Source: an uncultured Anaerolinea sp. (GTDB lineage Bacteria > Chloroflexota > Anaerolineae > Anaerolineales > UBA4823). From it: 64,000 nucleotides of DNA. Positions 7,659 through 54,175 of this stretch are shown here, one piece after another. Every line of letters begins with the position of its first letter. Position 1 is the stretch's first letter. The translations under genes and the position numbers were made by a program. The notes beneath the pieces were generated by a model. The model had not been told where the DNA came from. It was given only the letters and a program-made list of their open reading frames with translations, and ran no database searches. The stretch is from the NCBI GenBank assembly GCA_964503145.1, contig CAZCYV010000017.1, positions 16,718-80,717 of the forward strand. Direction: 5' to 3'.

Positions 7659-7678
7659 ATGATTACCATGGATATCCT

Positions 7679-8914: not shown

Positions 8915-8940
8915 CTTCACCTATCTTCGGAGCGCTGAAA

Positions 8941-11237: not shown

Positions 11238-11247
11238 GGATTGGCGA

Positions 11248-36198: not shown

Positions 36199-37005
36199 TC
36201 AGCCTTCGATCCCCAACAGCTTGTTGAGCTTGTCCACGTCGAAGCTCAAGACGATATTTCCTCCGACGTCGAACACCGGGGTGGATTCGGGCCCCCCCGT
36301 CCAGGAACGCACACGCGCTGCGGCGGCGCGATCACGGGTGATATTGATCTCCTCAAAGGGGATATCGTTCACTTTCAAATAGGCGCGCGCCCGGCGGCAA
36401 GCAGGGCACCAATCGGTGCAATACAATACTACGCGCACCGGCTTCGGGGCATCTACAGGGCTGGGCAAAGCGCCAGACGCCGCCAGCGCCGGCTGAGCGG
36501 CTACCGCAGCGCCTTCGGGAACGATTTCCTGGGGCACAGGCACGCCTTCGATCTCTGCCAGCTCGCGGAACAGCACTTCGTTATCGGGTTGCTCGTCGAT
36601 GTTGTGCACGTCAACGTAACGGATGATACCGGTGCGATCCACGATGAAAATTGCCCGCTCGCTGTAACCCTCGGGGCGCAACACGCCATACTTCTGCGCC
36701 ACCTGCCCATGCGGCCAGAAATCCGACAACAGCGGATAGGTGATCCCCCCAAAGCTTTCTGCCCAGGCGCGCAGGCAATGCTTGCTATCTACGGAAATAC
36801 CCAGAACCTGGGTATTGACCCTCTCGAACCGGTCTAAGGCGACCTGATACGAGGGGATCTGCGCCGTTCATATCGGCGTCCAGGCCAGGGGGAAGAAAGC
36901 GATAACTACGTTTTTCCTGCCTAAGAAATCGCTCAGGCGAACTTTATCCCCAAGGTGTGACTCGAGGACAAAGTCAGGGGCATATTGCCCTACTCTCAGC
37001 GCCAT
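36199..37005 (-). CDS. Selenocysteine-containing AhpE-like peroxiredoxin fused to a glutaredoxin/NrdH-like domain (in-frame TGA at 36868-36870)
   Basis: My own translation of the minus strand from ATG 37005 (AAGGAG 6 nt upstream) gives MALRVGQYAPDFVLESHLGDKVRLSDFLGRKNVVIAFFPLAWTPI[TGA]TAQIPSYQVALDRFERVNTQVLGISVDSKHCLRAWAESFGGITYPLLSDFWPHG... This runs straight into ORF-track entry 36199..36729. The TGA occupies the peroxidatic Cys of the universal PxxxTxxC motif. The C-terminus carries a CPAC Grx-like domain (VVLYCTDWCPACRRA). Confidence 0.8.
36796..36857 (-). promoter_or_regulatory. Candidate bacterial SECIS region downstream of the in-frame UGA
   Basis: In the mRNA after the UGA there are two stem-loops. 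The first pairs CCCUC with GAGGG and encloses GGUC-GCCUUA-GACC, with its apical loop about 28-33 nt after the UGA. The second is a perfect 9-bp hairpin AAUACCCAG-GUU-CUGGGUAUU (36816-36796). Neither was scored with a SECIS model. Confidence 0.3.
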
Positions 37006-37247: not shown

Positions 37248-37321
37248 GCCCTCGTAGCTCAGTGGATTAGAGCACTTGCTTGCGGAGCAAGGGGTCGCGT
37301 GTTCGAGTCGCGCCGGGGGCG
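37248..37321 (+). tRNA. tRNA-Arg (anticodon GCG)
   Basis: Hand-folded cloverleaf. Acceptor stem GCCCUCG/CGGGGGC with one G-U pair, D-arm GCUC-AGUGGAUUA-GAGC with A20, anticodon arm CUUGC-UUGCGGA-GCAAG with anticodon GCG at 37282-37284. Variable loop GGGUC, T-arm GCGUG-UUCGAGU-CGCGC, discriminator G. CCA is not encoded. Confidence 0.9.
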
Positions 37322-37330
37322 CTCGATTTT

Positions 37331-38530
37331 TTAACGCATCTTCACCAGCCAGGCGCTGACGAAGCCAACCAGACACACCCCAATCAGCAGATTCCCTGCT
37401 GAGACCCATCCCAGACCATCCACCAATCGGCCGAACAACACCGGACCGACCAACTGCCCCAGATTCTGGCCGATCAGAACGACCGCCAGCCCCAACCCGG
37501 CCCATTGTGGTCTGCGCATTACCTCGGGCGCGGCGGCAAACGTCGCCGTAGGCACGGCTCCGGCGATCAGCCCTTGAACGATCATCACGGCGACGATCGC
37601 CCCGCCCTCGACGCGGAAGGGAAACACAAGCAGCACTGCCAGCGCCAGGAATGGGAGCGAAAACACAAGACGGCGCGAGCCAATGCGATCAGAAAACCAA
37701 CCCGCTAGCGGCGCAGAAAATAAGACCATTATCGTGCCGATGCTGGCGACAAAGGCAGCCCGCCCCAGAGCAAAACCCCTGACCTCGTTCAGGAAGGTGG
37801 GATAGTATGTGCCCAGCGAGACCAGAGCCAGGTTGAAGCAACCGAATTCGAGCGCCAGCAGCCAGATATTCCGGTTCGCCAGGGCGCTGCGCAGATCGAG
37901 CAGCTCAGTAGCAGATCGATCGCCGGCCTGCTGCGCTGGTGGACGGCGGACAAAAACGGCATAAGCGGCAAACATCAGCACGGCGAACCCCGCTCCAAAC
38001 CACCATACTGCCGACAAGCCCTGCCAGGCCGTCAAAACCGGCGCCAGGAGATACATCATCACCGTGCCAACCGGCACCCAGGTGGCCCAGATGCCCATCG
38101 GCCCACCCTGACGCTCCGGCGGGAACCACATGGCGATGGTAGCAGGCGCCACCACGCCGATCAGCCCAATCCCAATCCCCTCGATCACCCGGCCGGTCAT
38201 CAGGGCGCCATAGTTGTTCGATAGGGCGCCCACGCTCGCGCCTGCGGCCATGCAGCCCAGGGCGACCAGCCCAGTGAGCCGAGGGCCCCAGCCTTGCAGG
38301 ATGACCCCCGCCGGCAACGCCAGGATCAGGCCCACCAGCGCGATGACAGACATCAATGCGCCCGCCTGCGCCAGATCGATCTGCAAGGTCTGCATTAAGA
38401 CGGGCATGACCGGCGGGACTTTGAACTGATTTAGCGGCGCAGCTACGCTGGCAAAATACACCACCCATAAGATCACCCAGGCATAGGGCAGCACAACTGC
38501 TAAAGGTCTGGAGGGAACGTTTTCGCTCAT
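37331..38530 (-). CDS. MFS transporter
   Basis: Start moved to ATG 38530 (MSENVPSRPL). About 12 TM helices with an MFS loop 2-3-like motif (LPAGVILQGWGPRL). It is the last gene of the corrinoid methyltransferase operon. Confidence 0.85.
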   Translation of the reverse strand: MSENVPSRPLAVVLPYAWVILWVVYFASVAAPLNQFKVPPVMPVLMQTLQIDLAQAGALMSVIALVGLILALPAGVILQGWGPRLTGLVALGCMAAGASVGALSNNYGALMTGRVIEGIGIGLIGVVAPATIAMWFPPERQGGPMGIWATWVPVGTVMMYLLAPVLTAWQGLSAVWWFGAGFAVLMFAAYAVFVRRPPAQQAGDRSATELLDLRSALANRNIWLLALEFGCFNLALVSLGTYYPTFLNEVRGFALGRAAFVASIGTIMVLFSAPLAGWFSDRIGSRRLVFSLPFLALAVLLVFPFRVEGGAIVAVMIVQGLIAGAVPTATFAAAPEVMRRPQWAGLGLAVVLIGQNLGQLVGPVLFGRLVDGLGWVSAGNLLIGVCLVGFVSAWLVKMR

Positions 38531-38658
38531 GGGCGCAATTTCCCGGGGCGCGCCGCCAAAAGTCCGGGCGGTCGAGGCAAACCTTCTCCGCCCGGCAACG
38601 GCTCCGCGGCGCAGCTTGTAGCCGGGATCGCTCTGATCCCGGCAACAAGCCAATCAGG

Positions 38659-39999
38659 TTAATATTTGCCGTATTCCTTGCCCGCTTCGATCATCGCGTG
38701 CAGGTTCTCGGCCTCAGCGTCATCGAGCACGGCGCCGGTGGAGAGGATATAACCGCCGTCCTGTCCGACTTCGTCGATCAGCTTCTTGACGTAATCTCGG
38801 ACATCCGCCGGCGTGCCCGCTTTGAGCATGGAAACCGGCACATTGCCCCCGAAGCAAGCCCAGCCGCTGAAGCGCTTCTTCACTTCTTTCATGTCGGACT
38901 GGTCGAAGATCCAGATGGTCGAGCCTTTGGGGATATCGTAATCGGCGATGATGTCCAGGCGCTGGTTGTAGCCGCCCTCGACGAACAGATAGGGTACGAT
39001 GCCCTCTTCGATCAGCCCGATGACCACCGCCTTCAAGGTCGGCCAATAGAAGGTCTGGTAGTCCTTGTTGGACATGAACCCATCGGCGCCTTTGTGCAGC
39101 GGGATGAAGCAGATAGGGTTTTTGTTGGTGGTCGCAGAGCGCACGCCCATCTCGATGGCGATCGGCACCAACCGCTCCATCGCCGCCAGCAGCTTCTTGG
39201 GCTGGCGGAACATATCCAGCATGATGGCGCGCGTGCCCCGCAGCGTATCGCCCAGGGTATCGAATGGCGCTTTGGTGAAGCCGCCAATCAGCGGCGGGAT
39301 GCCAAGGGTGGTGATGGTGGCGGCGTCAACGGCCAGAGCAGCCTGAATCCATTCCATCGCCGCCTCGCCCGCCTGGATCAGTTTCTTGAAGGCTTCCAAC
39401 ACCGGCGGGATGCCCACCGGCACCATGAAGCCGCCAATGAAGGGCAGTTCGAGGATGTCCGTGAAGGGCGCCAGCATCGACCACGGAGCGAAAGCGCCGA
39501 AGATGCGCGGCAGGTAGGTGCGCATAAAGAAATCCGACGGATCGCGCAGGAATTGGTCGTAATCCTCGGCCTTCATGTATTCCGCTTCCACGCACTGATA
39601 AGGCGAGGTGGAGGGCACACCATGTCCGGGCCAGCGGTAGAGCTTGTAATCCAGCATCTCGAAGACTTTGCCTGGGCCGTAGATCGGCGCGCTGGAGAGC
39701 GAGTCGGGCTGGAAGTCCTGGTGATATTTTTTCAGCGCGTAGCCCAGTTTATCGTAATCGTACATCGCCTCTTCGGGCGTCACCCCCGTGTAGGCAAAGG
39801 GATAAAATCCGACGGTGGGGCACACAGGCACGCGAACCGGCTTCTTGAGTTGCACCACATCCTTGATCATTTGCACGCGCTCTTTGTAGGCGCGTTCAGC
39901 TTCAGGGCTGGCAAATTGCACACCCTCGGGCGAAAGCCAGGCCTGAAAGCGGGCTTCCTGTTTCTCGGCTGGGGTAAGTTTGCTCCAGTTAGCGTCCAT
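38659..39999 (-). CDS. Uroporphyrinogen-decarboxylase (URO-D) superfamily methyltransferase, the candidate substrate:corrinoid methyltransferase (MT1)
   Basis: 446 aa. The C-terminal region GGNVPVSMLKAGTPADVRDYVKKLIDEVGQDGGYILSTGAVLDDAEAENLHAMIEAG is typical of URO-D/MtaA-like TIM barrels. No HxC zinc motif is seen. It lies 3 nt downstream of the corrinoid protein gene. Confidence 0.75.
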   Translation of the reverse strand: MDANWSKLTPAEKQEARFQAWLSPEGVQFASPEAERAYKERVQMIKDVVQLKKPVRVPVCPTVGFYPFAYTGVTPEEAMYDYDKLGYALKKYHQDFQPDSLSSAPIYGPGKVFEMLDYKLYRWPGHGVPSTSPYQCVEAEYMKAEDYDQFLRDPSDFFMRTYLPRIFGAFAPWSMLAPFTDILELPFIGGFMVPVGIPPVLEAFKKLIQAGEAAMEWIQAALAVDAATITTLGIPPLIGGFTKAPFDTLGDTLRGTRAIMLDMFRQPKKLLAAMERLVPIAIEMGVRSATTNKNPICFIPLHKGADGFMSNKDYQTFYWPTLKAVVIGLIEEGIVPYLFVEGGYNQRLDIIADYDIPKGSTIWIFDQSDMKEVKKRFSGWACFGGNVPVSMLKAGTPADVRDYVKKLIDEVGQDGGYILSTGAVLDDAEAENLHAMIEAGKEYGKY

Positions 40000-40002
40000 G
40001 GG

Positions 40003-40629
40003 TCACACTCCATACCATCCCTTGGCCAGGTTGACGGCGGTCATGGCATCTTTACCGTAGGCGTCCGCCCCGGTGTATTCCTTGATTTGGGCGTCGATCT
40101 GCCCACCCCCGATCATCACTTTGACATCTGTCAGCCCGGCGGCCTTCAGCGCCTCCACGGTGGCCTTCATCGGGTCATAAGCCAGGGTCAGGAATCCGCT
40201 CAAGCCGACCACCTTTGCGCCGGTCTGCTTTGCCGCCTCGACGAATTTGGCCGGCGGCACATCCACCCCCAAATCGGTGACCTCGAAACCGTTCACATCC
40301 AGCATGAAGGCCACAATGTCCTTGGCGATGTCATGGATATCGCCTTCCACCGTGCCGATGACCACCTTGCCCAGCTTTGTCGCTTCGGCGGTCTGCTGCA
40401 GGCGCGGCTTGATGATTTCCGTGACCTGGCGGAGCATCTCGCCCGCCAGGATCAACTCGGGGATGAAACAATCCCCCGCTTCGAAGCGCTTGCCGATCAC
40501 TTCCATCGCCTGGCGGCAGTCCTCCAGCACCTCCAGCGGAGAGACCCCCGCCTCCAGCATCTGGTTGGTGATCTTCAATGCATCTTCCTCACGCATATCT
40601 GTGATCGCATCGATCAATTCTTGGGACAT
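40003..40629 (-). CDS. Corrinoid (cobalamin-binding) protein, MtaC/MtbC-like
   Basis: 208 aa with an N-terminal helical cap domain and a Rossmann B12-binding domain. The His-on motif is GTVEGDIHDIAKD (DxHxxA variant of DxHxxG), with GLSGFLT and MIGGGQ. Confidence 0.92.
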   Translation of the reverse strand: MSQELIDAITDMREEDALKITNQMLEAGVSPLEVLEDCRQAMEVIGKRFEAGDCFIPELILAGEMLRQVTEIIKPRLQQTAEATKLGKVVIGTVEGDIHDIAKDIVAFMLDVNGFEVTDLGVDVPPAKFVEAAKQTGAKVVGLSGFLTLAYDPMKATVEALKAAGLTDVKVMIGGGQIDAQIKEYTGADAYGKDAMTAVNLAKGWYGV

Positions 40630-40675
40630 GTTTTCGGAACTCCTTTCTTTTGCTTTGGGCCGATTAAAACAAGGT

Positions 40676-41482
40676 TTATTCGCCGGATCTATCGAAAATC
40701 CCTTTGCGGGAGGCGCGAATGAAGTTCATACAGTAGGCGTCTCGACCGAGCAGCAGTTCAGTGGTCAGAATGGCGGCCTGAATCTCACGGTCGAGCGGAT
40801 CCAAGATGGCGCTATCCAATCCATTCTGAATCGCCAGGCTCAGGAAGTAGCGATTGATAAAGGAGCGCGCCGGCAGGCCGAAAGAAATATTGCTCAGCCC
40901 GATCGTCAGGTGCGCCTGCGGGAACTCCTGACGCACCAGGCGCATGGTGTCGAAGGCGATCACGGCGCTCTGAGTGTTGGTGGAGATGGTCATCGCCAAG
41001 GGGTCGATGTACAGATGATCGTCCGGCACCCCCATCTGGCGCGCTTCTGCGACCACCTTGCAGATCACCTCGAAGCGTTTTTCGCTGGTCTCGGGGATCT
41101 TCTTCTCGTCCATCGCCAGGGCGATCACCGGACAACCATGTTCGGCGACGATCGGCAGGACATGGGTCAGCCGATCCGGCTCGCCGCTGATCGAATTGAT
41201 CATCGGCGTCTGCTTCACCGCTTCCACGGCGATTTTCAAAGCTTGCGGATTGGCGCTATCCAGACACAGAGGGGTGTCCACGACAGCCTGGATGGTATCG
41301 ATCAGCCAGAGCAGATCCTCCGGCTCCCGGCTGGGATGCGTGCCCGCGTTCACATCCAGCCAGGCCGCTCCGGCTTCGCTCTGCTTTTTGGCCAGGCCAG
41401 CAATGTAATCGGCGTCGCGCTCGGCGATGGCCTGGGCAACGCGCTTGCGAGTGCCATTGATTTTTTCTCCGATGATTTTCAT
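40676..41482 (-). CDS. Methyltetrahydrofolate:corrinoid methyltransferase (pterin-binding, MeTr/AcsE/MtgA-like), the candidate MT2
   Basis: 268 aa pterin-binding TIM barrel: IIGEKINGTRK, LDVNAG, PLCLDSANP, INSISGE, YIDPL and GLSNISFGLP. Confidence 0.85.
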   Translation of the reverse strand: MKIIGEKINGTRKRVAQAIAERDADYIAGLAKKQSEAGAAWLDVNAGTHPSREPEDLLWLIDTIQAVVDTPLCLDSANPQALKIAVEAVKQTPMINSISGEPDRLTHVLPIVAEHGCPVIALAMDEKKIPETSEKRFEVICKVVAEARQMGVPDDHLYIDPLAMTISTNTQSAVIAFDTMRLVRQEFPQAHLTIGLSNISFGLPARSFINRYFLSLAIQNGLDSAILDPLDREIQAAILTTELLLGRDAYCMNFIRASRKGIFDRSGE

Positions 41483-41488
41483 GCGACT

Positions 41489-43327
41489 TCAATTCTCCCT
41501 GGGTGGGAATAGCATTGCCAGCGCAAACTGGCGGCTGAAATTGGGATAGGTGGTCAATTCCAGGTAGCGTGTGCGGCGAGCGATTTCCTGGGCGCGCTGG
41601 CGGGCGGCGCGCGAGATCAGGATCCATTTCGCCCCCAACGCGGCGGCGTTGCCCACCTGGCGATAGCGGGCATTTGGCAGGTGAGGAAACAACCCCATGT
41701 CGATCGCATTCTGGATGTTCAGGAAAGAACCAAACGCTCCGGCGACGATCACCTGTTGCACCGCCTCTGGCGGCGTACCGGTGGTTTCCAGCAAAATGTT
41801 CAACCCTGCCTGGATGGCGCCTTTGGCAAGCTGTATCTCGTTGACATCCTCTTGGGTAATCGAGATATCCCGGCCGCTGCCGCTGCGTTTTGCGGGTACG
41901 AGCACAAATTCGAGCCCGTGATCGCCCTGGCGGATGCCATCGCGATCGCGTTGAAAGCGCCCTCGCGCGTTCAGGTATCCCGCCTTGTACAGTTCAGCCA
42001 CCGCATCCAGGATGCCCGAGCCGCATAGCCCTACGGCCGGCTGATCTTCCACAGTGGTCAACTCCGGGCCGCGAGCGCTGATGCGCACTTTCTCGATCGC
42101 CCCTGCAGCAGCGCGCATGCCATCCCGAATGTGAGCGCCCTCGAAAGCTGGACCCGAAGCGCAAGAGACCGCAGTCAGGAAGGGTTGCGCGGGCAGGCGC
42201 AGGCTGATCTCGGTATTAGTGCCGATGTCCAATCCCAGGGTTACCTGATCGCTCTGATCCAGGTCGCTCGCCAACACCATCGCCACATGGTCGGCGCCGA
42301 CGAATCCGCCAATGCTGGGCGGGATATGGATAGTTGCGCCGGGCGCCATCTCCAACCCAATCTCGCTGGCGGGCACATCCAGCGCCGAGGAGGCGGCCGC
42401 CACGTAGGGCGCAGTGGCGAGCTGGCGCACGGGGAATTGCAGCAACAGGTGGATCATCGCAGTATTGCCCACAATGCAGGCTTCTGCTACCTGCTCTCTG
42501 CTTGCGCCAGCCCGGCGCAGCAAGTCGCCAAGCATTTCGTCCAGCGCCTGGCGCACCTTTTCGGCCAGAAGTTGTCCGCCATTGGCATTGCGCACGACGT
42601 GGTTCAGGCGGCTGATCACATCCTCGCCGTAACTGATCTGCGGATTTGGCGCGCCGGCCGAGGCCAGATCGGCGCCTGTTTCCAGATCCACCAGGAAAGC
42701 GGCGATCTTGGTCGTCCCCAGGTCGATCGCCAGGCCGAGCGGCCTTTCGCCAGCTGGTCGCACGCCCAGGATCGCGCCATCGCGCACGAAGACGCTGGCG
42801 CGCCAGCCCGTCGAACGCAGCGCGCCCGGCAGGCTGCGGATCAGCGATGCGCTGGCCTGTAACCCGCTGAGGCCATACCGGCTTTCCAATTCATCTGTGA
42901 GGCGGGTCAGATCCGAGCGCACATCCTCTAGCTTCGGCGGTTCAAGCTCTACCGCATAAGCGCGCACCAGCGGATCGGGCGGCGCCGGGCGCAGGTTGCT
43001 TTCGACCTGCAATCGCTGGCCGGTAATCAGAGAATCTTTGGGGAGATGGAGTTTGACATCGCTCAAAACCCGGGCGCAACAGGCCAGCCGGTAACCGTTG
43101 AGCTGGTCGGCTTCGTCGAGCAAAAAGTTTTCGTCTGCATTCAGCGGGCTGACTTCCCCGGCAAGCAGCACCACCCGGCACTGCCCGCAATCCCCTTCAC
43201 CGCCGCAAGCCGAAGCCAGGTCGATGCCGGCCTGGCGGGCGGCATCCAGGATAGTCGCCCCCGCGGCCACCCGAACGCGTTTGCCCAGCGGCTGGAATTG
43301 AACCTGCAGCGTCTGCGGCGCGTCCAT
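41489..43327 (-). CDS. Reductive activator of corrinoid enzymes (RACE/RamA-like: N-terminal 2Fe-2S ferredoxin plus ASKHA ATPase)
   Basis: 612 aa with a plant-type ferredoxin motif (CGGEGDCGQCRV...YRLACCARV) followed by an actin/sugar-kinase-like fold (GLAIDLGTTKIAAFLVD, GLDIGTNTEI, LCGSGILDA). Confidence 0.85.
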   Translation of the reverse strand: MDAPQTLQVQFQPLGKRVRVAAGATILDAARQAGIDLASACGGEGDCGQCRVVLLAGEVSPLNADENFLLDEADQLNGYRLACCARVLSDVKLHLPKDSLITGQRLQVESNLRPAPPDPLVRAYAVELEPPKLEDVRSDLTRLTDELESRYGLSGLQASASLIRSLPGALRSTGWRASVFVRDGAILGVRPAGERPLGLAIDLGTTKIAAFLVDLETGADLASAGAPNPQISYGEDVISRLNHVVRNANGGQLLAEKVRQALDEMLGDLLRRAGASREQVAEACIVGNTAMIHLLLQFPVRQLATAPYVAAASSALDVPASEIGLEMAPGATIHIPPSIGGFVGADHVAMVLASDLDQSDQVTLGLDIGTNTEISLRLPAQPFLTAVSCASGPAFEGAHIRDGMRAAAGAIEKVRISARGPELTTVEDQPAVGLCGSGILDAVAELYKAGYLNARGRFQRDRDGIRQGDHGLEFVLVPAKRSGSGRDISITQEDVNEIQLAKGAIQAGLNILLETTGTPPEAVQQVIVAGAFGSFLNIQNAIDMGLFPHLPNARYRQVGNAAALGAKWILISRAARQRAQEIARRTRYLELTTYPNFSRQFALAMLFPPREN

Positions 43328-43329
43328 GG

Positions 43330-44043
43330 CTACGCAGCGGAGTTATCCGGGAAAAAGCTGGCGTTGCCTGTGCTGGCGCCAGCGGCGCGAAAATCCAGGT
43401 AACTGATGGTCTGCCCTGGCGGGACGACTAGAAAATCATCGTCCCAGGGGCCGGTGAGCAACTTCAAGACCAGGGCGTTCGAGCCAGGGATCTCCTCGAA
43501 GCGCAGGTTGAACTTCTCCGCCGTCTTGCGCGCGTAATCCACATAGGCCTGCTTATCGCCGCGACCTGTATCGATGTACACCAGCCGGGTGTAGTTCTTG
43601 AGCATGGCGTGCATGATCCAATCGGCGCGTTCCTGACCGTATTGAGCCACCAGGCGCTCATATTCGTCGAACGGCGTGTCGGCGACTTCGATCCAACCTT
43701 TGGTCAGGTAATAGGTGCCAGGTTCTTTCCTTGACTGCTCAGAATAAGCCTCTCGGGAACCCAGGAATATGGCAATGCAATCGTCCACCCGCGGGATGAC
43801 CAATGTACAGTTGTTGGCCTTCAGGCCAATCACCGCCATGGAACACAGCCCATAGCCCAAAAGCAGGGTATCAAAAGAATCGCAGGAAGCGTCCACTGCT
43901 TCCTGCAATTTTTCCTTCAGAGTTCCTGGAGAGAGGTGAAGGCCGAAGTCCAGCACCTGGTAAGCCATGCCTTCGGGCATGAAGGGCAGCATCTCTTCGA
44001 TCACCGTAGCGCAGGCGATAATTTTTGTGCGGTCTGGGTTCAT
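43330..44043 (-). CDS. DUF1638 domain protein
   Basis: 237 aa. The pattern KIIACATVIEEM...LLLGYGLCS...IPRVDDCIAIFLGS...YYLTKGW matches what I recall of DUF1638, a family seen next to corrinoid methyltransferase genes. Its stop is 2 nt from the RACE start. Confidence 0.75.
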   Translation of the reverse strand: MNPDRTKIIACATVIEEMLPFMPEGMAYQVLDFGLHLSPGTLKEKLQEAVDASCDSFDTLLLGYGLCSMAVIGLKANNCTLVIPRVDDCIAIFLGSREAYSEQSRKEPGTYYLTKGWIEVADTPFDEYERLVAQYGQERADWIMHAMLKNYTRLVYIDTGRGDKQAYVDYARKTAEKFNLRFEEIPGSNALVLKLLTGPWDDDFLVVPPGQTISYLDFRAAGASTGNASFFPDNSAA

Positions 44044-44051: not shown

Positions 44052-44091
44052 CCTATATAGTTATATAGGGAAGTCAGGAATATAGTATAAT
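44052..44091. promoter_or_regulatory. AT-rich divergent control region with an inverted repeat, a candidate GntR operator
   Basis: CCTATATA-GT-TATATAGG is a perfect 8-bp inverted repeat at 44052-44069. A further ATATAG lies at 44080-44085 and TATAAT at 44086-44091. The region sits between divergent DUF1638 and gntR genes in an otherwise GC-rich sequence. Confidence 0.45.
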
Positions 44092-44137
44092 ATGTCTGCG
44101 CAATAATTGTCAAGGCCAAAGCCACCCTGGCGATCTT

Positions 44138-44905
44138 ATGACACTCGGAAGGCGAAGTACCACAAAAAACGCGTATCAGATTGATCGCGACTCTTTCGAA
44201 CCCGCCTATCTACAACTGGCGAATATCTTACGCCGCCAGATTGCTGAGGGCGTCTTTCGGCCAGGCGATCAACTCCCTTCAGAAGCGCAGTTGGTCAGCC
44301 GTTATGGCGTCAGCCCGATGACGGTGCGCCGTTCGATCAATCTGCTGGCAGATCAGGGCGTGGTGAGCACTGCTCAGGGACGCGGCACCTTCGTCAAGGC
44401 GCTGGAGCTGAGCACGGCAATCTTCGACCTGCAAGACCTGGCCGATCTGTTTAAGGACGCCCCCGAAGACAGCATCCGGCTGCTGGATGTGCGCGTGGTC
44501 TCTGCAGACGAACGCACGGCGCGCAAGCTCGACCTGAAACCCGGCGATCCGGCGATCTACATCCGCCGCCTGTTCACCCGCGAGGATCTGCCGATCTTCT
44601 ATCATCGCGCCTATCTGATTTATGATCCCACCCGCCCCATCGTCGAGGCCGAGATGGACGTGACCTCTCTTCAAGGCCTGTTCACCAATGCGAACAACAG
44701 CCTGCTCAAATGCGGTCACTTGAAGATCGAAGCCACTCTGATGACCGAAGAAGAGGCCCGGCTGCTCAAGAAACCTCTGCCGGCGGCCGCGTTTCTCCTG
44801 GAGCACGTTTTCTTCGACTTCGACGGCCGGCCGATCAGTTGGGGCTGGTTCATTTTCCCGGGAGATCGCCTGCGCTTTCAGACCAAAGTGGGGATCGACG
44901 CCTAA
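44138..44905 (+). CDS. GntR family transcriptional regulator (HutC subfamily, UTRA effector domain)
   Basis: 255 aa with a winged HTH (LPSEAQLVSRYGVSPMTVRRSINLLADQGVVSTAQGRGTFV) and a UTRA-like C-terminal domain. Confidence 0.9.
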   Translation: MTLGRRSTTKNAYQIDRDSFEPAYLQLANILRRQIAEGVFRPGDQLPSEAQLVSRYGVSPMTVRRSINLLADQGVVSTAQGRGTFVKALELSTAIFDLQDLADLFKDAPEDSIRLLDVRVVSADERTARKLDLKPGDPAIYIRRLFTREDLPIFYHRAYLIYDPTRPIVEAEMDVTSLQGLFTNANNSLLKCGHLKIEATLMTEEEARLLKKPLPAAAFLLEHVFFDFDGRPISWGWFIFPGDRLRFQTKVGIDA

Positions 44906-44937: not shown

Positions 44938-45609
44938 ATGGAACGACCTTTGAATGATAACGATCTCAGCAGCCAGCTCATTCGCTATGTGGCCGACTTG
45001 AAAGAGCAGGAAGCTCTGGCGCTGGTGCGGGAGCGGGTGGCTCAAAACGACGATCCGTTGTTGCTGGTGGAAAATTGCCAGGAAGGGTTGCGCATCGTCG
45101 GCGAACGCTATGAGCGCCAGGAGTACTATCTTTCTGGTCTGATTATGGCCGGAGAAATCTTCCGCGAGGTCATGGAAATCCTGGCCCCGATCATCGAGGG
45201 GCGCTTTTCGGGCAGCGAAAGCGGGGTCATCCTGCTGGGCACCGTGGAAGGGGATATCCACGACATCGGCAAGAACAACCTGAGCCTGCTGCTGACCTGT
45301 TACGGCTTTACTGTGAACGACCTGGGGGTAGATGTGCCTCCTGGGGAGTTTTTGTCTCAGGCGATGCAGCTCAAACCGGATATCATCGGCCTTTCCGGCC
45401 TGCTGACCAGTTCATACGATAGTATGCGCGCCACCGTGCAGTTACTGCGCTCGGCTTCGGATCACAGCGTCGCTGCCATCCCAATCGTCATCGGCGGCAA
45501 CCAACTCAACGAACAGGTATGCCAGTATGTGGGCGCTGACGCCTGGGTGACAGATGCCATGTCGGGTGTGCGCCTGTTCCAGAAGCTGATCGCTCAGCGG
45601 CAACAATAG
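44938..45609 (+). CDS. Second corrinoid (cobalamin-binding) protein
   Basis: Start moved to ATG 44938 (MERPLNDND). Cap domain plus B12-binding domain with the canonical GTVEGDIHDIGKN (DxHxxG), GLSGLLT and VIGGNQ. It lies 32 nt downstream of gntR on the same strand. Confidence 0.9.
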   Translation: MERPLNDNDLSSQLIRYVADLKEQEALALVRERVAQNDDPLLLVENCQEGLRIVGERYERQEYYLSGLIMAGEIFREVMEILAPIIEGRFSGSESGVILLGTVEGDIHDIGKNNLSLLLTCYGFTVNDLGVDVPPGEFLSQAMQLKPDIIGLSGLLTSSYDSMRATVQLLRSASDHSVAAIPIVIGGNQLNEQVCQYVGADAWVTDAMSGVRLFQKLIAQRQQ

Positions 45610-46167: not shown

Positions 46168-46962
46168 ATGAAATCGAAAGGCTTGACCGCAGAATTGATC
46201 GGAGAGGTGTTCGGCACCTTCATCCTGATCCTGTTGGGCGACGGCGTAGTGGCGAACGTGGGCCTTGCGCCGCGCCTGGCCGCACCCGCGTATAACTGGA
46301 ACACCATTACCTTCGGTTGGGCGTTCGCGGTTATCGTGGCAGTGTACGTGTCGGCGGGCGTCTCCGGGGCTCATCTGAACCCGGCCGTGACCCTGGCCCT
46401 GGCCGTGAAGCGCGGCTTCCCGTGGGGCAAAGTTCTGCCCTATATGGTGGCGCAGGTCTTTGGTTGCTTCCTGGGCGCTGCGGGCGTGTACCTGGCCTAT
46501 GGAGATGGTCTGCGCGCCGCGGGTATGCCCAACGTCTGGTGCACCGGCCCTGGCTCGGTCTTCGCTTCCGCTTTCTGGGGCGGCGCTGCCGGCTCGGCCA
46601 TTGGCCCTTACTCGCTGACAGGGGCGATCCTGACCGAAATCCTGGGCACCGCAGTGTTGTTGTGGGGCGTCCTGGCCAGCGGCGACTCGCGCAACATCGG
46701 CCTGATGCACAACTTGGGCCCCTTCCTGGTCGGCGGCACCGTTCTGGCAGTCGGCCTCTCCCTGGGCGGCCCGAGCGGTTACGCGATCAACCCCGCCCGC
46801 GACCTGGGTCCGCGCCTCTTTGGGACGCTGGTTGGAACGAAAGGCCTGTTCGATGGCCTCTACTGGTTGGTGGCGCCGATCATCTCCACTCTCATCGGCG
46901 GTTTGGTGGGTGTGTTCACTTACGACTGGTTCATCACAAGCGGACTGCCGGAGAAAAAGTAA
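46168..46962 (+). CDS. glpF: Glycerol uptake facilitator (aquaglyceroporin)
   Basis: 264 aa MIP-family protein with both NPA boxes (SGAHLNPAVTLA, GYAINPARDLGPR). GGAG RBS upstream. Confidence 0.93.
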   Translation: MKSKGLTAELIGEVFGTFILILLGDGVVANVGLAPRLAAPAYNWNTITFGWAFAVIVAVYVSAGVSGAHLNPAVTLALAVKRGFPWGKVLPYMVAQVFGCFLGAAGVYLAYGDGLRAAGMPNVWCTGPGSVFASAFWGGAAGSAIGPYSLTGAILTEILGTAVLLWGVLASGDSRNIGLMHNLGPFLVGGTVLAVGLSLGGPSGYAINPARDLGPRLFGTLVGTKGLFDGLYWLVAPIISTLIGGLVGVFTYDWFITSGLPEKK

Positions 46963-47030
46963 GTCAGGCTTTTCTGCAACTCACGAGATGAGCCAGGATC
47001 AGCGGTCCGTTAGGAGAAGGATAAAGCTCG

Positions 47031-48032
<1,002 letters not shown>

Positions 48033-48097
48033 TCACTTAACATCAGGGGCCAGGTCTTCCCCTGGCCCCAATCTTGCCATCTGGATCAAGAGACAAT

Positions 48098-48733
48098 ATG
48101 CCAATTTCTCGCGATGACACCTTGAATTGGATCAAGACCTGCGCCGACGTCCTGGCAGAGAATCGCGACTACCTGACTCAGCTCGACGCGGCGATCGGCG
48201 ACGCAGACCACGGCGCCAACATGGACCGCGGCTTCAAAGCGTTCATGAACAAAATGCCGGAGGTCGCCGATAAAGACATCGGTACCATCCTCAAGACCCT
48301 CGGAATGACGCTGATATCCACCGTGGGTGGAGCTGGCGGCCCGCTTTACGGGACTTTCTTCTTGCAAGCTGGCATGAAATCTGCCAACAAGATGGAGTTG
48401 ACCCTGGAGGATTGGGTGGCAGCGATGGACGCCGCCCTGGCAGGCGTGATCATGCGCGGCAAGGCAGAGCTGGGAGACAAGACCATGGTCGACGCGCTAA
48501 CTCCGGCTCTGAATGCCCTGAAGCAGGCCAGCCTGAACGGCGCGTCGATTGGAAAGGCCTTGCAGCTATCGGCCGAAGCAGCCCGAGAGGGCATGGAGGG
48601 GACGATTCCGCTGGTCGCCCGAAAAGGCCGGGCGAGCTACCTGGGCGAACGTAGCGCAGGACACCAGGACCCCGGAGCAACCTCATCATACCTGATCCTG
48701 AAAGCAGCTGCCGATACGTGGGCAGACAAGTAA
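48098..48733 (+). CDS. dhaL: Dihydroxyacetone kinase, ADP-binding DhaL subunit
   Basis: Start at ATG 48098. Motifs are LTQLDAAIGDADHGANMDRGF, GGAGGPLYGTFF, GDKTMVDAL and ARKGRASYLGERS. Confidence 0.93.
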   Translation: MPISRDDTLNWIKTCADVLAENRDYLTQLDAAIGDADHGANMDRGFKAFMNKMPEVADKDIGTILKTLGMTLISTVGGAGGPLYGTFFLQAGMKSANKMELTLEDWVAAMDAALAGVIMRGKAELGDKTMVDALTPALNALKQASLNGASIGKALQLSAEAAREGMEGTIPLVARKGRASYLGERSAGHQDPGATSSYLILKAAADTWADK

Positions 48734-48775
48734 CCTCATATCTGTACGAAACCAACTTTTGAAGGAGATAAGACT

Positions 48776-50275
48776 ATGGCTAAGTACGCAGCAGCAGTCG
48801 ATCAAGGGACTACCAGCACCCGCTTCATGATCTTTGATCACAGCGGCAAGGTTGTCTCGGTAGCACAGAAAGAACACGAGCAGATCTACCCGAAGCCTGG
48901 GTGGGTCGAGCACGATCCAATGGAAATCTGGGCCCGCACCCAGGAAGTGATTAAAGAGGCGCTGGCCAAGGCGAACGTCGACCCCAAGGACATCGCCGCT
49001 GTGGGCGTCACCAACCAACGCGAGACGACCGTTATATGGGAAAAGGCGACTGGCAAGCCGGTTTACAACGCCATTGTCTGGCAGGATACGCGCACCGACA
49101 GGATCTGCAATGACCTGGCTAAGGATGGCGGTCAGGATCGCTTCCGCCCCAAAGTTGGCCTGCCTCTGGCGACCTACTTCTCTGGCCCGAAGATCAAGTG
49201 GGTCCTGGATAACATCGAGGGCGTGCGCGAGAAGGCGGAAAAAGGTGAGGTGTTGTTCGGCAACATCGACACCTGGGTGATCTGGAATCTGACCGGCGGG
49301 CCCAATGGCGGCGTGCATGTGACCGATGTCTCCAACGCCTCCCGCACCATGCTGATGAACCTGGAAACACTCGACTGGGATCCAGAAATCTTGCAGCTTA
49401 TGGGTGTGCCCCGCGCCATGCTGCCGGCGGTCCGCGCCTCCAGCGAAGTGTACGGCACTGCGGTGGGCGATCTGGCAGGCGTTCCCGTAGCCGGCGACCT
49501 GGGCGACCAGCAGGCGGCGCTCTTTGGGCAGACCTGCTTCAGCGTCGGCGAGGCCAAGAACACCTATGGCACCGGCTGCTTCATGCTGCTCAACACCGGC
49601 ACCAACGCAGTCCAATCCAAGAACGGCCTGCTGACCACGCTGGCCTACAAGATCGGCAGCCAGCCGGCGGTCTATGCCCTGGAAGGCTCCATCGCCATCA
49701 CCGGCGCTCTGGTGCAGTGGCTGCGCGACAACATGGGCCTGGTCGAGAAGTCGGCGGATGTCGAAGCGCTGGCCAACACCGTGGAAGATAACGGCGGCAT
49801 CTACTTCGTACCCGCCTTCTCCGGTCTGTTCGCCCCCTACTGGAAGAGCGACGCCCGCGGCGTGATCGTTGGCCTGACCCGCTACGTCAACAAGGGCCAT
49901 ATCGCCCGCGCTGCCCTGGAAGCCACCGCTTACCAGACTCGCGAAGTCCTGGACGCGATGAATAAGGACTCGGGCGTCAACCTGACCGCCCTGAAGGTCG
50001 ATGGCGGCATGGTGTACAACGACACCCTGATGCAATTCCAGGCCGACATCCTGGGCGTGCCGGTCGTTCGCCCCACCGTTGCCGAAACGACCTCGCTGGG
50101 CGCGGCTTACGCCGCCGGCCTGGCCGTGGGCTTCTGGAAAGAGGTGGAAGACCTGCGCGAGAATTGGGGCAAGGATAAAGAGTGGCTGCCCAAGATGGAT
50201 GCGGAACACCGCGAAAAGCTGTACAAAGGCTGGCTTAAGGCGGTCACCCGCACCTTCGACTGGGTCGAACAATAA
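48776..50275 (+). CDS. glpK: Glycerol kinase
   Basis: 499 aa with [39 protein letters not shown] and [20 protein letters not shown]. Confidence 0.97.
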
Positions 50276-50291
50276 TCGGCGAGCGGTATCG

Positions 50292-50324
50292 GATCAGAGG
50301 GGGAGCTGGTTTACCCCTCTGATC
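50292..50324 (+). terminator. Hairpin after glpK (possible terminator or processing site, no U-tract)
   Basis: Perfect 11-bp stem GATCAGAGGGG (50292-50302) / CCCCTCTGATC (50314-50324). It is followed by tgatgg, not a T-run. Confidence 0.4.
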
Positions 50325-50458
50325 TGATGGAACCCGCCTCGCCCGGCATCCAGGCGACATACCTGCGATGACCCAGGTATGTCGCCTGGTACTTCTAACA
50401 CATGATCTGGTTACCGCTTTCAACGAATTCGATGATATTGGTGGTGAATGGTGAGTTC

Positions 50459-50728
50459 ATGACAAAGCAGACAAAAAAATCCTCCGATCATCCAAAAGAG
50501 AAACGCATAAAGCTGCCCTCGCAACCCGCTGGCGCGTGGATTTCCATGAGAACAGGGATCATCGTGATCAGCATTGTCAGCCTGGGGATGGCTGTGCTTA
50601 CAGCCTGGCAGGCTGTGCCAATCAAGGGTTGGCTCGAGGGGATCCTATGGGGATTGTTGTTCGGCGGCTCGATCTGGGTCATCTTTCTGGGTTTTCTGCT
50701 CTACGGTCGGCTGTTCCGAAAAGGTTGA
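50459..50728 (+). CDS. Small hypothetical membrane protein (two TM helices)
   Basis: Likely start is ATG 50459 (MTKQTKKSSDHPKEKR), followed by two hydrophobic helices. No family recognised. It sits inside the glycerol cluster. Confidence 0.4.
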   Translation: MTKQTKKSSDHPKEKRIKLPSQPAGAWISMRTGIIVISIVSLGMAVLTAWQAVPIKGWLEGILWGLLFGGSIWVIFLGFLLYGRLFRKG

Positions 50729-50757
50729 CCACTCCAAGCCGACCTTCCTAAAGGGCG

Positions 50758-51351
50758 ATGGCAATGGATGCCATTCAGGATAAGCTCGATCGTTGGGAAG
50801 CGTCCTGGGCGGCTTACGACGAGGCGACTTACCAGGATGTTCTGGCAGCTATTGGCCGCCAGGATATCGTCTATGAGATCGGCGCCGGCGACTTGCGCCT
50901 GGCCCGGCGCATGGCGGCAATCGCCAGGCGCGTCTACGCCATAGAAATCCAAGAACCTTTGTTGGCGCAAGCCTGTCGCTCGCAAGAGCCGCTCCCCGCT
51001 AACCTGATCATCCAATGCGGGGATGCCCGGAGGATGCCAGTGCCGACAGGCACGACGGTGGGTGTGCTGCTGATGCGCCATTGCACACATTTCCAGCTTT
51101 ATGCTCAGAAATTAAAGCTGGCCGGCGCTCATACCTTGATCACGAACGCCCGCTGGAAGATGGCTGTGGAACGGGTGCTGCTCCAGCAGCGACGTCTGCT
51201 CTATCAGGACATAGACATGGGATGGTATGCCTGCTGGTGCGGCGCGGTTGGATTCAAGCCCGGGCCGGCAGAAAGGTTAACTCCAGAGTTGGAGGCTGCC
51301 GTTTACGAAGTTCAGGATTGCCCGCAGTGCTCCAACGCCTTGAGAAAATAG
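50758..51351 (+). CDS. Class I SAM-dependent methyltransferase-like protein with a C-terminal Cys4 cluster
   Basis: 197 aa with motif I-like VYEIGAGDLRLA and a post-I acidic residue (YAIEIQ). The C-terminal CWCG...CPQC suggests a zinc ribbon. Function unknown. Confidence 0.55.
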   Translation: MAMDAIQDKLDRWEASWAAYDEATYQDVLAAIGRQDIVYEIGAGDLRLARRMAAIARRVYAIEIQEPLLAQACRSQEPLPANLIIQCGDARRMPVPTGTTVGVLLMRHCTHFQLYAQKLKLAGAHTLITNARWKMAVERVLLQQRRLLYQDIDMGWYACWCGAVGFKPGPAERLTPELEAAVYEVQDCPQCSNALRK

Positions 51352-51416
51352 GTTAAAATTTATTTTGGCGTACATTTGTGCAACCTTGATTAGCTTGAAA
51401 ACGGAAGTGACAAAAA

Positions 51417-52586
51417 ATGACCAAACCACATGTGATCATCATCGGCGCAGGGTTCACCGGGGTTGCCACAGCCCACGACCTGGCCCTGCGCGGCTTTGAC
51501 GTCACCGTCGTCGAGCGTGGGCCGATTGCGAACGGCACTTCAGGCCGGACCCACGGCCTGCTGCACAGCGGCGGTCGCTACGCCGTTAAGGACAAAGAAT
51601 CGGCTGTCGAATGCATCGAGGAAAACATGATCTTGCGCAAGATCGTCCCCAATGTCATCGAGCCGAACGGCGGTTTGTTCATCGCCCTGACAGAGAGCGA
51701 CCTGGCTTACGGCGAGGATTTCATCGAAGGCTGCCAGGAGTGTAACATCCCCATCGAAGAATTGACCCCCAAGCAGGCTTTGGAACTGGAGCCTAACCTG
51801 AACCCGAAGCTGCTTTCGGCCTTCATCATACCCGACGGCACGTTTGATCCTTTGCGCCTGGCGCTCTCCTTTGCCGCCACCGCCAAATCCAACGGCGCCC
51901 GCTTTCGACTGTACACCGAAGTGGAACAAATGATCCTGGACGGGAAGGGCAACGTCGTCGGGGTAAAGATCTGGGATCGCAAAACCGGCCAACGCGGCGA
52001 GATTCGCGCAGATCTTGTGGTCAATGCCACCGGCGCCTGGGCAGGGGAGATCGCAGCCATGGCTGGCGGTTCAGTGCCGATCAAGCCAACGCCCGGAATC
52101 ATGGTCGCCTATGACCAGCGTCTGGCCCAACGGGCGATCAACCGCCTCTGCCCGCCCAGCGATGGCGATATCATCCTGCCTCAGCGGCGGATGATGGTCG
52201 TTGGCACGACCTCCTATGAAGTGGACAACCTGGATTACGTGCCCGTGATCGAAGAGCAGATCGAGATGATGCTCGAGCGCGGCGCCGAAATGGTGCCCGG
52301 CATCCGCCAGGCCAAAGTGCGCGGCGTGTACACTGCGACCCGTCCGCTGATCGGCGCTGGCTCCACCGGGCGCAGCATTGCGCGCACGTTCAAGTGCTTC
52401 GACCACAAGGAATCTGACAATGTCGATGGCCTGATCACCATCACCGGCGGCAAGGCCACCACCTTGCGGGCAATGGCAGAGAAAACCGCGGACATGGCTT
52501 GCGCTAAGCTGGGCGTCTCTGCACCATGCATGACCAAAGAAGTCCCGCTCATCAGCTATCGCCAATTCTATGCTCTACCCGACTAG
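51417..52586 (+). CDS. glpA: FAD-dependent glycerol-3-phosphate dehydrogenase, GlpA-like flavoprotein (short form)
   Basis: 389 aa with the dinucleotide fold VIIIGAGFTGVATAHDLALRG. GRTHGLLHSGGRYAVKD and ITITGGKATTLRAMAE are colinear with E. coli GlpA residues ~1-400 as I recall them. It ends where GlpA's C-terminal BFD-like domain would begin. Confidence 0.82.
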   Translation: MTKPHVIIIGAGFTGVATAHDLALRGFDVTVVERGPIANGTSGRTHGLLHSGGRYAVKDKESAVECIEENMILRKIVPNVIEPNGGLFIALTESDLAYGEDFIEGCQECNIPIEELTPKQALELEPNLNPKLLSAFIIPDGTFDPLRLALSFAATAKSNGARFRLYTEVEQMILDGKGNVVGVKIWDRKTGQRGEIRADLVVNATGAWAGEIAAMAGGSVPIKPTPGIMVAYDQRLAQRAINRLCPPSDGDIILPQRRMMVVGTTSYEVDNLDYVPVIEEQIEMMLERGAEMVPGIRQAKVRGVYTATRPLIGAGSTGRSIARTFKCFDHKESDNVDGLITITGGKATTLRAMAEKTADMACAKLGVSAPCMTKEVPLISYRQFYALPD

Positions 52587-52595
52587 AGAGGCCTT

Positions 52596-53324
52596 ATGAT
52601 CAACAACTGGACGGTTACTTTCCTGGTTTACCGGCAAAAGGGCGAAGAGCCAGGACATTTCGACAGCTTCAAAGTGGATGTCAACCCAGATGAGTACGTC
52701 CTGGATGCCATCGAGCGCATCTGGGCCTTCCAGGACCGTTCGCTCACCTTTGCCCATGCCTGCCACCACTCGACCTGCGGCGCGTGCGGTATGCGGGTCA
52801 ACGGTGTAGAAAAACTGACCTGCATCACCCCAATCCGCAGCGTTACCGAAAACGGCGGCACGATCCAGGTCGAGCCGATGCGCAATTTTCCGGTAGTAAG
52901 CGACCTGGTGGTGGATCTCGGCGTGATGTTCCGCCGCATGGAGGCCGTAGGCCACCGGCCAGTGCTGCCGCTGGCGGAGGAACCTGCTCCCACATCGGGC
53001 AACCCGCCCAGGCCGGAAGACATGCAGATCATCCGGCTGGCCGATTGCATCGAATGCGGGCTGTGCATCAGCGCCTGTCCCATAGCGCTGACCACTCCGA
53101 CCTATTTGGGGCCGGCGGTCCTGGCCGGAGCGCAGCAGCACGGTCTGGATGGCAACCGCTCCCTGCTGGCGCTCGTGGATAGCCAGGATGGCGTGTGGCG
53201 TTGCCACAGCGCATTCGAGTGCAGCGCCGTCTGCCCTTCCAATGTTGACCCGGCGCGCCGGATCATGGACCTGCGCAAACAGGTCATCCGCGCTCGGATC
53301 ATGAGTTTCTTCCGCCGGGATTGA
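52596..53324 (+). CDS. Succinate dehydrogenase/fumarate reductase-type iron-sulfur subunit (SdhB-like)
   Basis: 242 aa with all three Cys clusters intact: CHHSTCGACGMRVNGVEKLTC (2Fe-2S), CIECGLCISACP and CHSAFECSAVCP (4Fe-4S and 3Fe-4S). Confidence 0.88.
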   Translation: MINNWTVTFLVYRQKGEEPGHFDSFKVDVNPDEYVLDAIERIWAFQDRSLTFAHACHHSTCGACGMRVNGVEKLTCITPIRSVTENGGTIQVEPMRNFPVVSDLVVDLGVMFRRMEAVGHRPVLPLAEEPAPTSGNPPRPEDMQIIRLADCIECGLCISACPIALTTPTYLGPAVLAGAQQHGLDGNRSLLALVDSQDGVWRCHSAFECSAVCPSNVDPARRIMDLRKQVIRARIMSFFRRD

Positions 53325-53343
53325 TTGAGAAAAGGAACCCATC

Positions 53344-53736: not shown

Positions 53737-53771
53737 CTCCGAGTTGCCTTGAAAACATGAAGGAATGAGCT

Positions 53772-54146: not shown

Positions 54147-54175
54147 CCCGCTCCACAGTTAGAGACAACTGATCG

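Follow-up and report, generated by a model that had tools for sequence, protein, structure and literature searches.

The window analysed here is a 64-kb (64,000 nucleotides) stretch of contig CAZCYV010000017.1 from an uncultured Anaerolinea species. Positions 37331–44043 contain, on the minus strand, a six-gene operon that is probably a corrinoid-dependent O-demethylase module of the MtvABC type, most likely serving the use of a methoxylated aromatic acid. Homology of its methyltransferase I (MT1) to the vanillate O-demethylase MtvB of Moorella thermoacetica, the identity of its partner proteins and the gene neighbourhoods of its relatives carry this assignment. An earlier sequence-only reading of the operon had left the substrate open; the comparisons presented here would narrow it to the class of phenyl methyl ethers handled by MtvB-like enzymes.

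The open reading frame (ORF) list, combined with Pfam and NCBIfam scans, gives six genes running in the same direction. The first encodes a DUF1638 protein (43330–44043; PF07796, E-value 5e-49) and is followed by the gene for a 612-residue ATP-dependent reductive activator of the RACo/RamA type (41489–43327), in which Fer2, RACo_linker, Raco_middle and RACo_C_ter domains form a 2Fe-2S and an ASKHA part. The next three genes encode a 268-residue pterin-binding TIM-barrel methyltransferase (MT2; 40676–41482), a 208-residue corrinoid protein (CP; 40003–40629) consisting of B12-binding_2 (PF02607) and B12-binding (PF02310) domains, and the 446-residue MT1 (38659–39999), a long-type member of the uroporphyrinogen decarboxylase (URO-D) superfamily in which PF01208 matches residues 227–443 only (E-value 2e-18). 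The last gene, called at 399 residues, encodes a transporter of the major facilitator superfamily (MFS; 37331–38530; MFS_1, E-value 3.5e-50). This order, and the gaps of 2, 6, 46, 3 and 128 nucleotides described in the sequence-only reading, were reproduced from the ORF coordinates, and profile searches identified every part of the three-component logic proposed there, i.e., MT1, a corrinoid protein, a tetrahydrofolate (THF)-directed MT2 and an ATP-dependent reductive activator. The divergent GntR regulator that it mentioned is found at 44138–44905 on the plus strand and is of the HutC type, with a winged-helix GntR domain (E-value 5e-21) and a UTRA effector domain (E-value 3e-20). Absent from that reading is a second corrinoid protein of 223 residues, CP2, which has the same B12-binding_2 and B12-binding domains and is encoded at 44938–45609 (plus strand), 32 nucleotides past the GntR stop codon. 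The gene arrangement is not a chance juxtaposition, because the same order recurs in many Anaerolineae metagenome-assembled genomes (MAGs) and metagenome contigs.

MT1 was compared with reference MT1 sequences taken, like those for MT2, from Supplementary Data 3 of PMC13222342. Among characterised proteins it is closest to MtvB, methyltransferase I of the vanillate O-demethylase from M. thermoacetica (38% identity, 413 residues, E-value 3e-88, 262 bits). The identities to MtoB and CdmB amount to 24–27% and 23–25%, respectively, and BLAST detects no similarity between MT1 and the short-type enzymes OdmB and VdmB. MtvB is also the best reference for 100 of the 101 MT1s from related loci. In the alignment MT1 and MtvB share the motifs GFTKAPFDTLGDTLRG and LH(K/R)GA, and an insertion of ∼25 residues that is common to CdmB and MtoB is missing from the window MT1 family, which has its own N-terminal extension (∼33 residues) and internal insertion (about 20 residues). 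In a neighbour-joining tree (capped distances, 200 bootstraps, UroD root) the window MT1 family is monophyletic (92% bootstrap) and belongs with MtvB, MtoB and CdmB to a long-type MT1 clade (94%), within which CdmB and MtoB form a group of their own (95.5%) that does not include the window family. Such a phylogenetic placement had been called for in the sequence-only reading, and it puts MT1 among the MtvB, MtoB and CdmB enzymes. CdmB has been placed in the UroD superfamily beside the O-demethylase MT1s MtvB, OdmB, VdmB and MtoB, and its structure is free of zinc (PMC13222342).

An AlphaFold2 model of MT1, calculated from a 90-sequence alignment, has a predicted local distance difference test score (pLDDT) of 97.2 and a predicted template modelling score (pTM) of 0.94. 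A Foldseek search against the Protein Data Bank (PDB) shows that the model resembles UroD and an MtaA-like methyltransferase from Methanosarcina mazei, with template modelling scores of about 0.7 (target-normalised), and weaker structural matches include MetE. CdmB is not among these Foldseek matches, which cover entries to 8 April 2026, possibly before the release of CdmB. At the sequence level, CdmB (PDB entry 9rui) is the only meaningful PDB match of MT1, with E-values of 2.8e-35 for the single sequence and 3e-43 for the family profile, and HemE is a marginal match among the solved structures. As judged from the model, MT1 is a URO-D-fold methyltransferase I and not HemE. The distinction from HemE, on which the sequence-only reading depended, is borne out by a TIGR01464 score of 20 bits against a cutoff of 303 and by the position of UroD as a distant outgroup in the tree, and the MT1 sequence indeed lacks the HxC zinc motif, as had been noted. 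Matches to MtaA/MtbA models are negligible (TIGR01463, 26 bits against a cutoff of 235), and the missing HxC motif together with this sub-cutoff score argues against an MtaA/MtbA/MtsA-type thiol methyltransferase. A zinc triad of His301, Glu340 and Cys381, considered by analogy with the MtaA/MetE spacing, was dropped: Cys381 is replaced by alanine in the Natroniella orthologue, and CdmB is zinc-free. NCBIfam has no model for MtvB, which matches the MtaA and HemE models just as weakly as the window protein does, so the lack of a curated-family match for MT1 is uninformative. A natural fusion of B12-binding_2, B12-binding and URO-D domains, whose MT1 part is 50% identical to the window MT1, is encoded in one of the related loci (protein P0123, locus L087, positions 1495–3573); it provides independent evidence that the MT1 family acts directly on a corrinoid domain.

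The partner proteins have counterparts in the known systems. MT2 matches the model NF005719, named 'methyltetrahydrofolate:corrinoid/iron-sulfur protein methyltransferase', with 334 bits against a cutoff of 259, and its identity is 43–44% to both MtvA and bacterial MtaA, 42% to CdmA and 35% to AcsE; from these comparisons it is predicted to be a methyl-corrinoid:THF methyltransferase that forms methyl-THF. The two corrinoid proteins CP and CP2 are 39% identical and both have an intact DxHxxG cobalamin-binding motif, which in CP lies in the sequence EGDIHDIAK. The activator is AcsV-like (442 bits) and shows 29% identity (E-value 2e-48) to the activating enzyme of Acetobacterium dehalogenans. 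DUF1638 has been linked genetically to corrinoid reactivation as a partner of a RamA-like activase (PMC5764234), and it is co-induced with RamA in glycine betaine demethylation (PMC12478193). The DUF1638 protein of the window is probably a helper of the reductive reactivation of the corrinoid, a partner role that fits the position of its gene 2 nucleotides upstream of the RACo gene. The MFS protein reaches only sub-threshold scores, the best being those to anion:cation symporter, NarK and lactate transporter models; from its place in the operon it is presumed to import the methylated substrate. The spacer between the MT1 and MFS genes encodes two RNA hairpins on the operon strand (38545–38651; minimum free energy −71.9 kcal/mol, z-score −3.6), the second of which is followed by a short U run. 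These hairpins may act as an attenuator or as an mRNA-stabilising element and in this way may set the ratio of enzyme to transporter expression.

On the basis of these homologies, a catabolic route can be proposed for the operon. The MFS transporter would import a methylated, probably anionic compound, the likeliest candidate being a methoxylated aromatic acid derived from lignin, such as vanillate, syringate or 3-O-methylgallate. MT1 would bind this compound and offer its O-methyl group to the Co(I) corrinoid of CP, yielding methyl-Co(III)-CP and a phenol, and MT2 would move the methyl group from CP onto THF to give methyl-THF. Should the cofactor accidentally be oxidised to Co(II), RACo would re-reduce it at the expense of ATP, with DUF1638 assisting. 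The HutC-type GntR protein would repress the operon at an operator just downstream of its promoter, and CP2 would take part either in regulation or in methyl transfer.

The same logic underlies several characterised demethylation systems, from which the window operon differs in defined respects. With MtvABC, in which MtvB is the MT1, MtvC the corrinoid protein and MtvA the MT2, it shares the three-component organisation, an MT1 similar over nearly its full length and an MT2 of 43% identity. Moreover, both hosts have a cytochrome bd, cydAB being present in the window and a cytochrome bd being carried by Moorella. However, the window MT1 belongs to a separate, supported subfamily, its host is a member of the Anaerolineae and not an acetogen, and the operon adds RACo, DUF1638, the MFS importer and the GntR–CP2 pair. 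MtoABCD from Methermicoccus shengliensis and Archaeoglobus fulgidus likewise combines a long-type URO-D MT1 for methoxylated aromatics with a corrinoid protein and an activator, but MtoB is much less similar to the window MT1, and archaeal MtoA is a reference distinct from the MtvA/CdmA-type MT2s with which the window MT2 was compared. OdmABD and VdmABD from A. dehalogenans and Desulfitobacterium hafniense share the pathway to methyl-THF, an MT2 of 37–40% identity and a homologous activator, but their MT1s are short-type URO-D proteins of about 320–340 residues.

The gene neighbourhoods of the MT1 family in Acidobacteriota, where the MT1s are 63–67% identical to the window protein, point to aromatic substrates. 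In an Acidiferrales MAG (67%), MT1 has as neighbours an MFS transporter, CoA-transferase subunits A and B, two Amidohydro_2 proteins, a LigB-type extradiol dioxygenase, two RraA-like proteins and a Meth_synt_2 protein. Amidohydro_2 is the family of LigI and LigJ, and RraA-like that of the LigK aldolase. A ring-cleavage context with LigB, LigI/J-like and LigK-like proteins is found in the loci L084/L085 (positions 1332–11350). A Pfam census of 126 neighbouring ORFs from mostly Acidobacteriota loci yields thiolase (9), CoA-transferase III (5), AMP-dependent ligase (5), enoyl-CoA hydratase (4), phenol-hydroxylase-type flavin monooxygenase (4–5), homocysteine S-methyltransferase (5) and S-adenosylmethionine (SAM) synthetase (2). 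The proximity of enzymes for hydroxycinnamate side-chain shortening and for protocatechuate/gallate ring cleavage suggests substrates of the vanillate or syringate type. It also hints at a fate for the demethylated product in Acidobacteriota, where oxygen-independent demethylation may be combined with oxygen-dependent ring cleavage. Genes for PF02574 homocysteine S-methyltransferases lie beside the MT1 family in several phyla, and Meth_synt_2 is encoded nearby in L084/L085. As to the fate of methyl-THF, there are hints that methyl groups from lignin may be routed to methionine and SAM in hosts of the MT1 family. Acidobacteriota in Stordalen Mire have been reported to express methyltransferase genes for methoxylated compounds, with mtxB calls from a table headed 'BLAST_bitscore > 200' (PMC10805028); the window MT1 reaches 262 bits against MtvB. 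For Tepidanaerobacter acetatoxydans, syringate use was predicted from MT1s that are 28–44% identical to MtoB, and growth was then shown, with the methyl groups alone being consumed (PMC13564433).

Several observations weigh against assigning the operon to a methoxylated aromatic acid. An identity of 38% leaves substrate specificity unfixed, and the grouping of the window family and MtvB as sisters has a bootstrap value of only 29%. CdmB, which belongs to the same clade as the O-demethylases, uses chloromethane (PMC13222342). The MFS protein is not an aromatic-acid symporter of the PcaK/VanK type (TIGR00895, 29 bits), and neither the window nor Natroniella has genes for the catabolism of a demethylated aromatic adjoining the operon. 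Genes of the THF C1 pathway and of cobamide biosynthesis are not found within the 64-kb window. Furthermore, MT1 is conserved at 55–89% identity across phyla, which is unusual for O-demethylase MT1s, normally a diverse swarm of paralogues.

The same machinery could instead act on a methyl donor other than a phenyl methyl ether, likewise imported by the MFS protein, although we consider this unlikely. Candidates would be aliphatic methyl ethers like the methylated sugar acid 4-O-methylglucuronate, which derives from xylan, S-methyl acids like methylmercaptopropionate, and N-methyl compounds. The sub-threshold transporter matches are to galactonate-type anion:cation symporters and to lactate/nitrate carriers rather than to aromatic-acid symporters, HutC-type GntR proteins often sense sugar derivatives, and Anaerolineae are mainly carbohydrate fermenters. 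The unusual conservation across phyla would be expected for one common small substrate, and CdmB shows that the clade is able to switch substrate class. In Methanosarcina, the mtpCAP operon is said to bring a URO-D-type methyltransferase together with a corrinoid protein and an MFS transporter for methylmercaptopropionate. On the other hand, all characterised close relatives of MT1 except CdmB act on methoxylated aromatics, the HxC...C zinc site of the thiol-directed URO-D methyltransferases is absent and MtaA/MtbA models barely match. Moreover, the Acidobacteriota contexts consist of genes for aromatic ring cleavage and side-chain β-oxidation, not of sugar-acid genes.

An anabolic or thiol-directed role, in which methyl-THF would load CP through MT2 and MT1 would methylate an acceptor, for instance as a split MetH-like methionine synthase with MT1 in place of the homocysteine module, appears improbable. 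The split methionine synthase of Phaeobacter inhibens has been shown genetically to consist of exactly such a set, with DUF1638, a RACo/RamA-like activase and separate pterin-binding and B12-binding proteins (PMC5764234), but in the window operon the homocysteine-binding protein is replaced by an MtvB-like MT1 together with an importer and a regulator. MetE occurs among the weaker Foldseek matches, and MT1s of Acidobacteriota and Syntrophomonadaceae adjoin PF02574, Meth_synt_2 and SAM synthetase genes. However, the homocysteine-binding domain (PF02574) is absent from the window operon and lies near the MT1 family in some other phyla only, MT1 lacks the zinc-binding, thiolate-activating HxC motif, and a dedicated importer with a repressor-type regulator better suits catabolism. 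In addition, the nearest homologue MtvB runs in the demethylating direction.

Dehalogenation of a haloalkane such as chloromethane by a Cdm-like system is most improbable: although CdmB is the best and nearly sole sequence match among solved structures, lacks the zinc motif as MT1 does and works within a set of MT1, CP, MT2 and activator that equals cdmBCA plus activating enzyme, MT1 is only 23–25% identical to it against 38–40% to MtvB, CdmB groups with MtoB apart from the window family, the CdmB/MtoB insertion is missing, polar MtvB motifs are kept where CdmB differs, and a gas requires no MFS importer. CdmBCA of A. dehalogenans (PMC13222342) shares with the window operon its MT1, CP, MT2 and activating-enzyme families but differs in the clade and insertion of its MT1, and the window operon in addition has an importer and a regulator. 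The conservation set in the CdmB paper comprises sequences of at least 40% identity, a level that the window MT1 does not reach, and Chloroflexota and Acidobacteriota are not mentioned in its supplements (PMC13222342). At least one of the tested features speaks against each of the chloromethane, thiol-methyl, methionine-synthase-like and HemE readings.

Few MtvB-like enzymes are as widespread and as conserved as the window MT1 subfamily. When one genome per species is scanned, at least 579 copies of MT1 relatives are found, mainly in Anaerolineae, Acidobacteriota and Bacillota. The best 80 of these, at 55–84% identity, were taken as the set of loci and carry labels of Chloroflexota (32), Acidobacteriota (27), Bacillota-type taxa (15) and others (6). 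The Bacillota-type labels comprise Syntrophomonadaceae, Moorellales, Halanaerobiales, the isolate Natroniella sulfidigena AHT3 and one record labelled Mollicutes, and the remaining six are Gemmatimonadota, Ignavibacteriales, Gammaproteobacteria, UASB270 and one Xanthobacteraceae-labelled bin. A large protein database contains thousands of relatives; the top 120 are 65–89% identical, and the taxon-named matches among them are all MAG proteins annotated as 'uroporphyrinogen decarboxylase' or 'hypothetical'. In a library clustered at 50% identity, 385 clusters match MT1 at E-values of ≤1e-30.

Partner genes accompany the family MT1 in many of the 80 genome loci (CP in 49, MT2 and RACo in 31 each, GntR and DUF1638 in 25 each, MFS in 20). 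The Anaerolineae module has CP2 and GntR genes divergent from DUF1638-RACo-MT2-CP-MT1-MFS, with extra CP-MT1 paralogue pairs lying, where present, between CP and MT1. In the Syntrophomonadaceae-type Bacillota the CP2 and GntR genes are divergent from CP-MT1-DUF1638, and Natroniella contains a self-contained MT2-CP-MT1-MFS-GntR-CP-DUF1638 block with unrelated flanks. Many Anaerolineae modules (L005, L008, L010, L012, L023, L079 and others) have one or two extra CP-MT1 pairs upstream of the window-type MT1; these paralogues are 35–41% identical to the window MT1, which is the single MT1 of the window. The flanks of the window operon show no synteny with the other loci. A tRNA-Arg gene with anticodon GCG, absent from the sequence-only reading, lies at 37248–37322 on the plus strand, 9 nucleotides from the MFS stop codon. 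The idea of a mobile island next to this tRNA gene was rejected, as att-like direct repeats to the other end of the module were not found.

The intergenic region between the DUF1638 and GntR genes contains conserved regulatory elements. On the operon strand, upstream of the DUF1638 gene, a promoter-like sequence TTGACA-18-TATACT is present at 44084–44113, matching 11 of 12 consensus positions, and TTGACA occurs at the same place in homologous loci. The operator-like element (44052–44073, minus strand) lies downstream of the −10 box and ahead of the DUF1638 start codon. It includes the sequence CTTCCCTATATAACTATA at 44056–44073, which overlaps a perfect 8+8 palindrome, CCTATATA-nn-TATATAGG, at 44052–44069. 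CTTCCCTATATAACTATA occurs once in the window, with zero occurrences expected. A degenerate-motif search finds motifs of this type in 19 of 86 loci from Anaerolineae and Bacillota, in every case directly ahead of the first operon gene, where they often fill the TTGACA...TATA(C/A)T spacer and are sometimes duplicated. The exact palindrome was found in other loci only in copies of the window contig. The conserved CTTCCCTATATAACTATA element is presumably an operator, to which the GntR protein would bind, as suggested by its position and recurrence. An Rfam scan reveals no cobalamin riboswitch or other Rfam element, the tRNA being the sole match.

The GntR gene is closely tied to a corrinoid protein gene. 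A GntR profile scan of metagenome contigs yields 417 relatives, and the best 80 of these (58–78% identity) were used as a regulator-anchored set; the profile matches of the regulator include PhnF, HutC and the trehalose repressor. A corrinoid protein gene directly follows the GntR gene in all 57 loci with room downstream, and in 45 of the 52 loci with room upstream a module gene is divergent, which in 43 cases is DUF1638. The MFS gene also recurs in these loci. When 73 corrinoid proteins of the loci are placed in a tree, the 22 encoded next to GntR genes all join the window CP2 in one clade, and the 49 encoded next to MT1 genes all join the window CP in a separate one. Every cobalamin-binding motif is conserved at 100% in the CP2 clade, which has class-specific substitutions in addition. 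Furthermore, the same GntR–CP2 chassis is found with differing MT1s, i.e., with the window type (67–81% identity), with a 50–57% type or with the 37–42% paralogue type alone. No description of a pairing of GntR with a corrinoid protein was found in the searchable literature.

Conceivably, though we regard the idea as doubtful, GntR and CP2 could form a substrate-agnostic sensor, in which CP2 would be a decoy that any MT1 of the module methylates as soon as its substrate is present, and GntR would read the cofactor state of CP2, leading to derepression. Such a sensor is allowed because the pair is invariable and CP2 forms a clade of its own with the cofactor residues kept, and because each MT1 has its own CP while one chassis carries various MT1 types. 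AerR/PpaA are B12-binding antirepressors and CarH exerts B12-dependent control of transcription; as in these systems, a B12-binding protein is genetically tied to a transcription factor. However, CP2 is a canonical methyltransferase-type corrinoid protein with a DxHxxG motif, and its putative partner is a HutC-type GntR protein. If the sensor were real, the GntR–CP2 pair would be a new kind of regulatory switch based on a B12 protein, in spirit like AerR/PpaA.

The rest of the window provides some information about the host. The window sequence is also contained in a 107-kb JGI metagenome contig (3300043267, Ga0484935_000108). The cytochrome bd oxidase mentioned in the sequence-only reading is encoded by cydA (21202–22614) and cydB (20149–21180). 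The suggestion made there that the host may not be a strict acetogen-type anaerobe fits the DnaA protein (dnaA, 1823–3181, minus strand), which shares 80–84% identity with its counterparts in MAGs carrying the names Anaerolineales, Anaerolineae or Chloroflexota, but cytochrome bd alone says little in this respect. With dnaK nearby (3879–5771), the window is probably close to the chromosomal replication origin; no sharp switch in cumulative GC skew is observed within it. The window also encodes a fused cydDC-like ABC transporter, selA (6300–7658) and a succinate-dehydrogenase-like set. Directly past CP2 lies a glycerol/dihydroxyacetone cluster (46168–56710, plus strand), with a GlpF-like MIP protein, DhaK, DhaL, GlpK, a DAO-type flavoprotein with Fe-S subunit and a DhaM-like EIIA-HPr-EI fusion; this adjacency is not conserved in other loci. 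A peroxiredoxin-glutaredoxin fusion gene (36199–37005, minus strand) contains an in-frame TGA (36870–36868) at the position of the peroxidatic cysteine (FFPLAWTPI-U-TAQIP), followed after 11 nucleotides by a hairpin (−21.8 kcal/mol, z-score −2.4), and gene callers break it into pieces of 45 and 176 residues. With selA in the same window, the fusion is a probable selenoprotein.

Taken by itself, the window operon is an ordinary example of a system of known type. What goes beyond the known picture is the breadth and conservation of the MT1 subfamily in non-acetogens, its hosts being mostly Anaerolineae and Acidobacteriota, and the trio of GntR, CP2 and operator. The module, with its regulator, operator and second corrinoid protein, offers a compact test bed for how such operons are switched on. 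Lignin methoxy groups are a large pool of methyl in soils, peat and digesters. If the MT1s of this subfamily are true O-demethylases, the B12 route would appear in Acidobacteriota beside oxygen-dependent ring cleavage, and abundant fermenters and facultative soil bacteria would harvest lignin methyl groups by an oxygen-independent, B12-dependent route.

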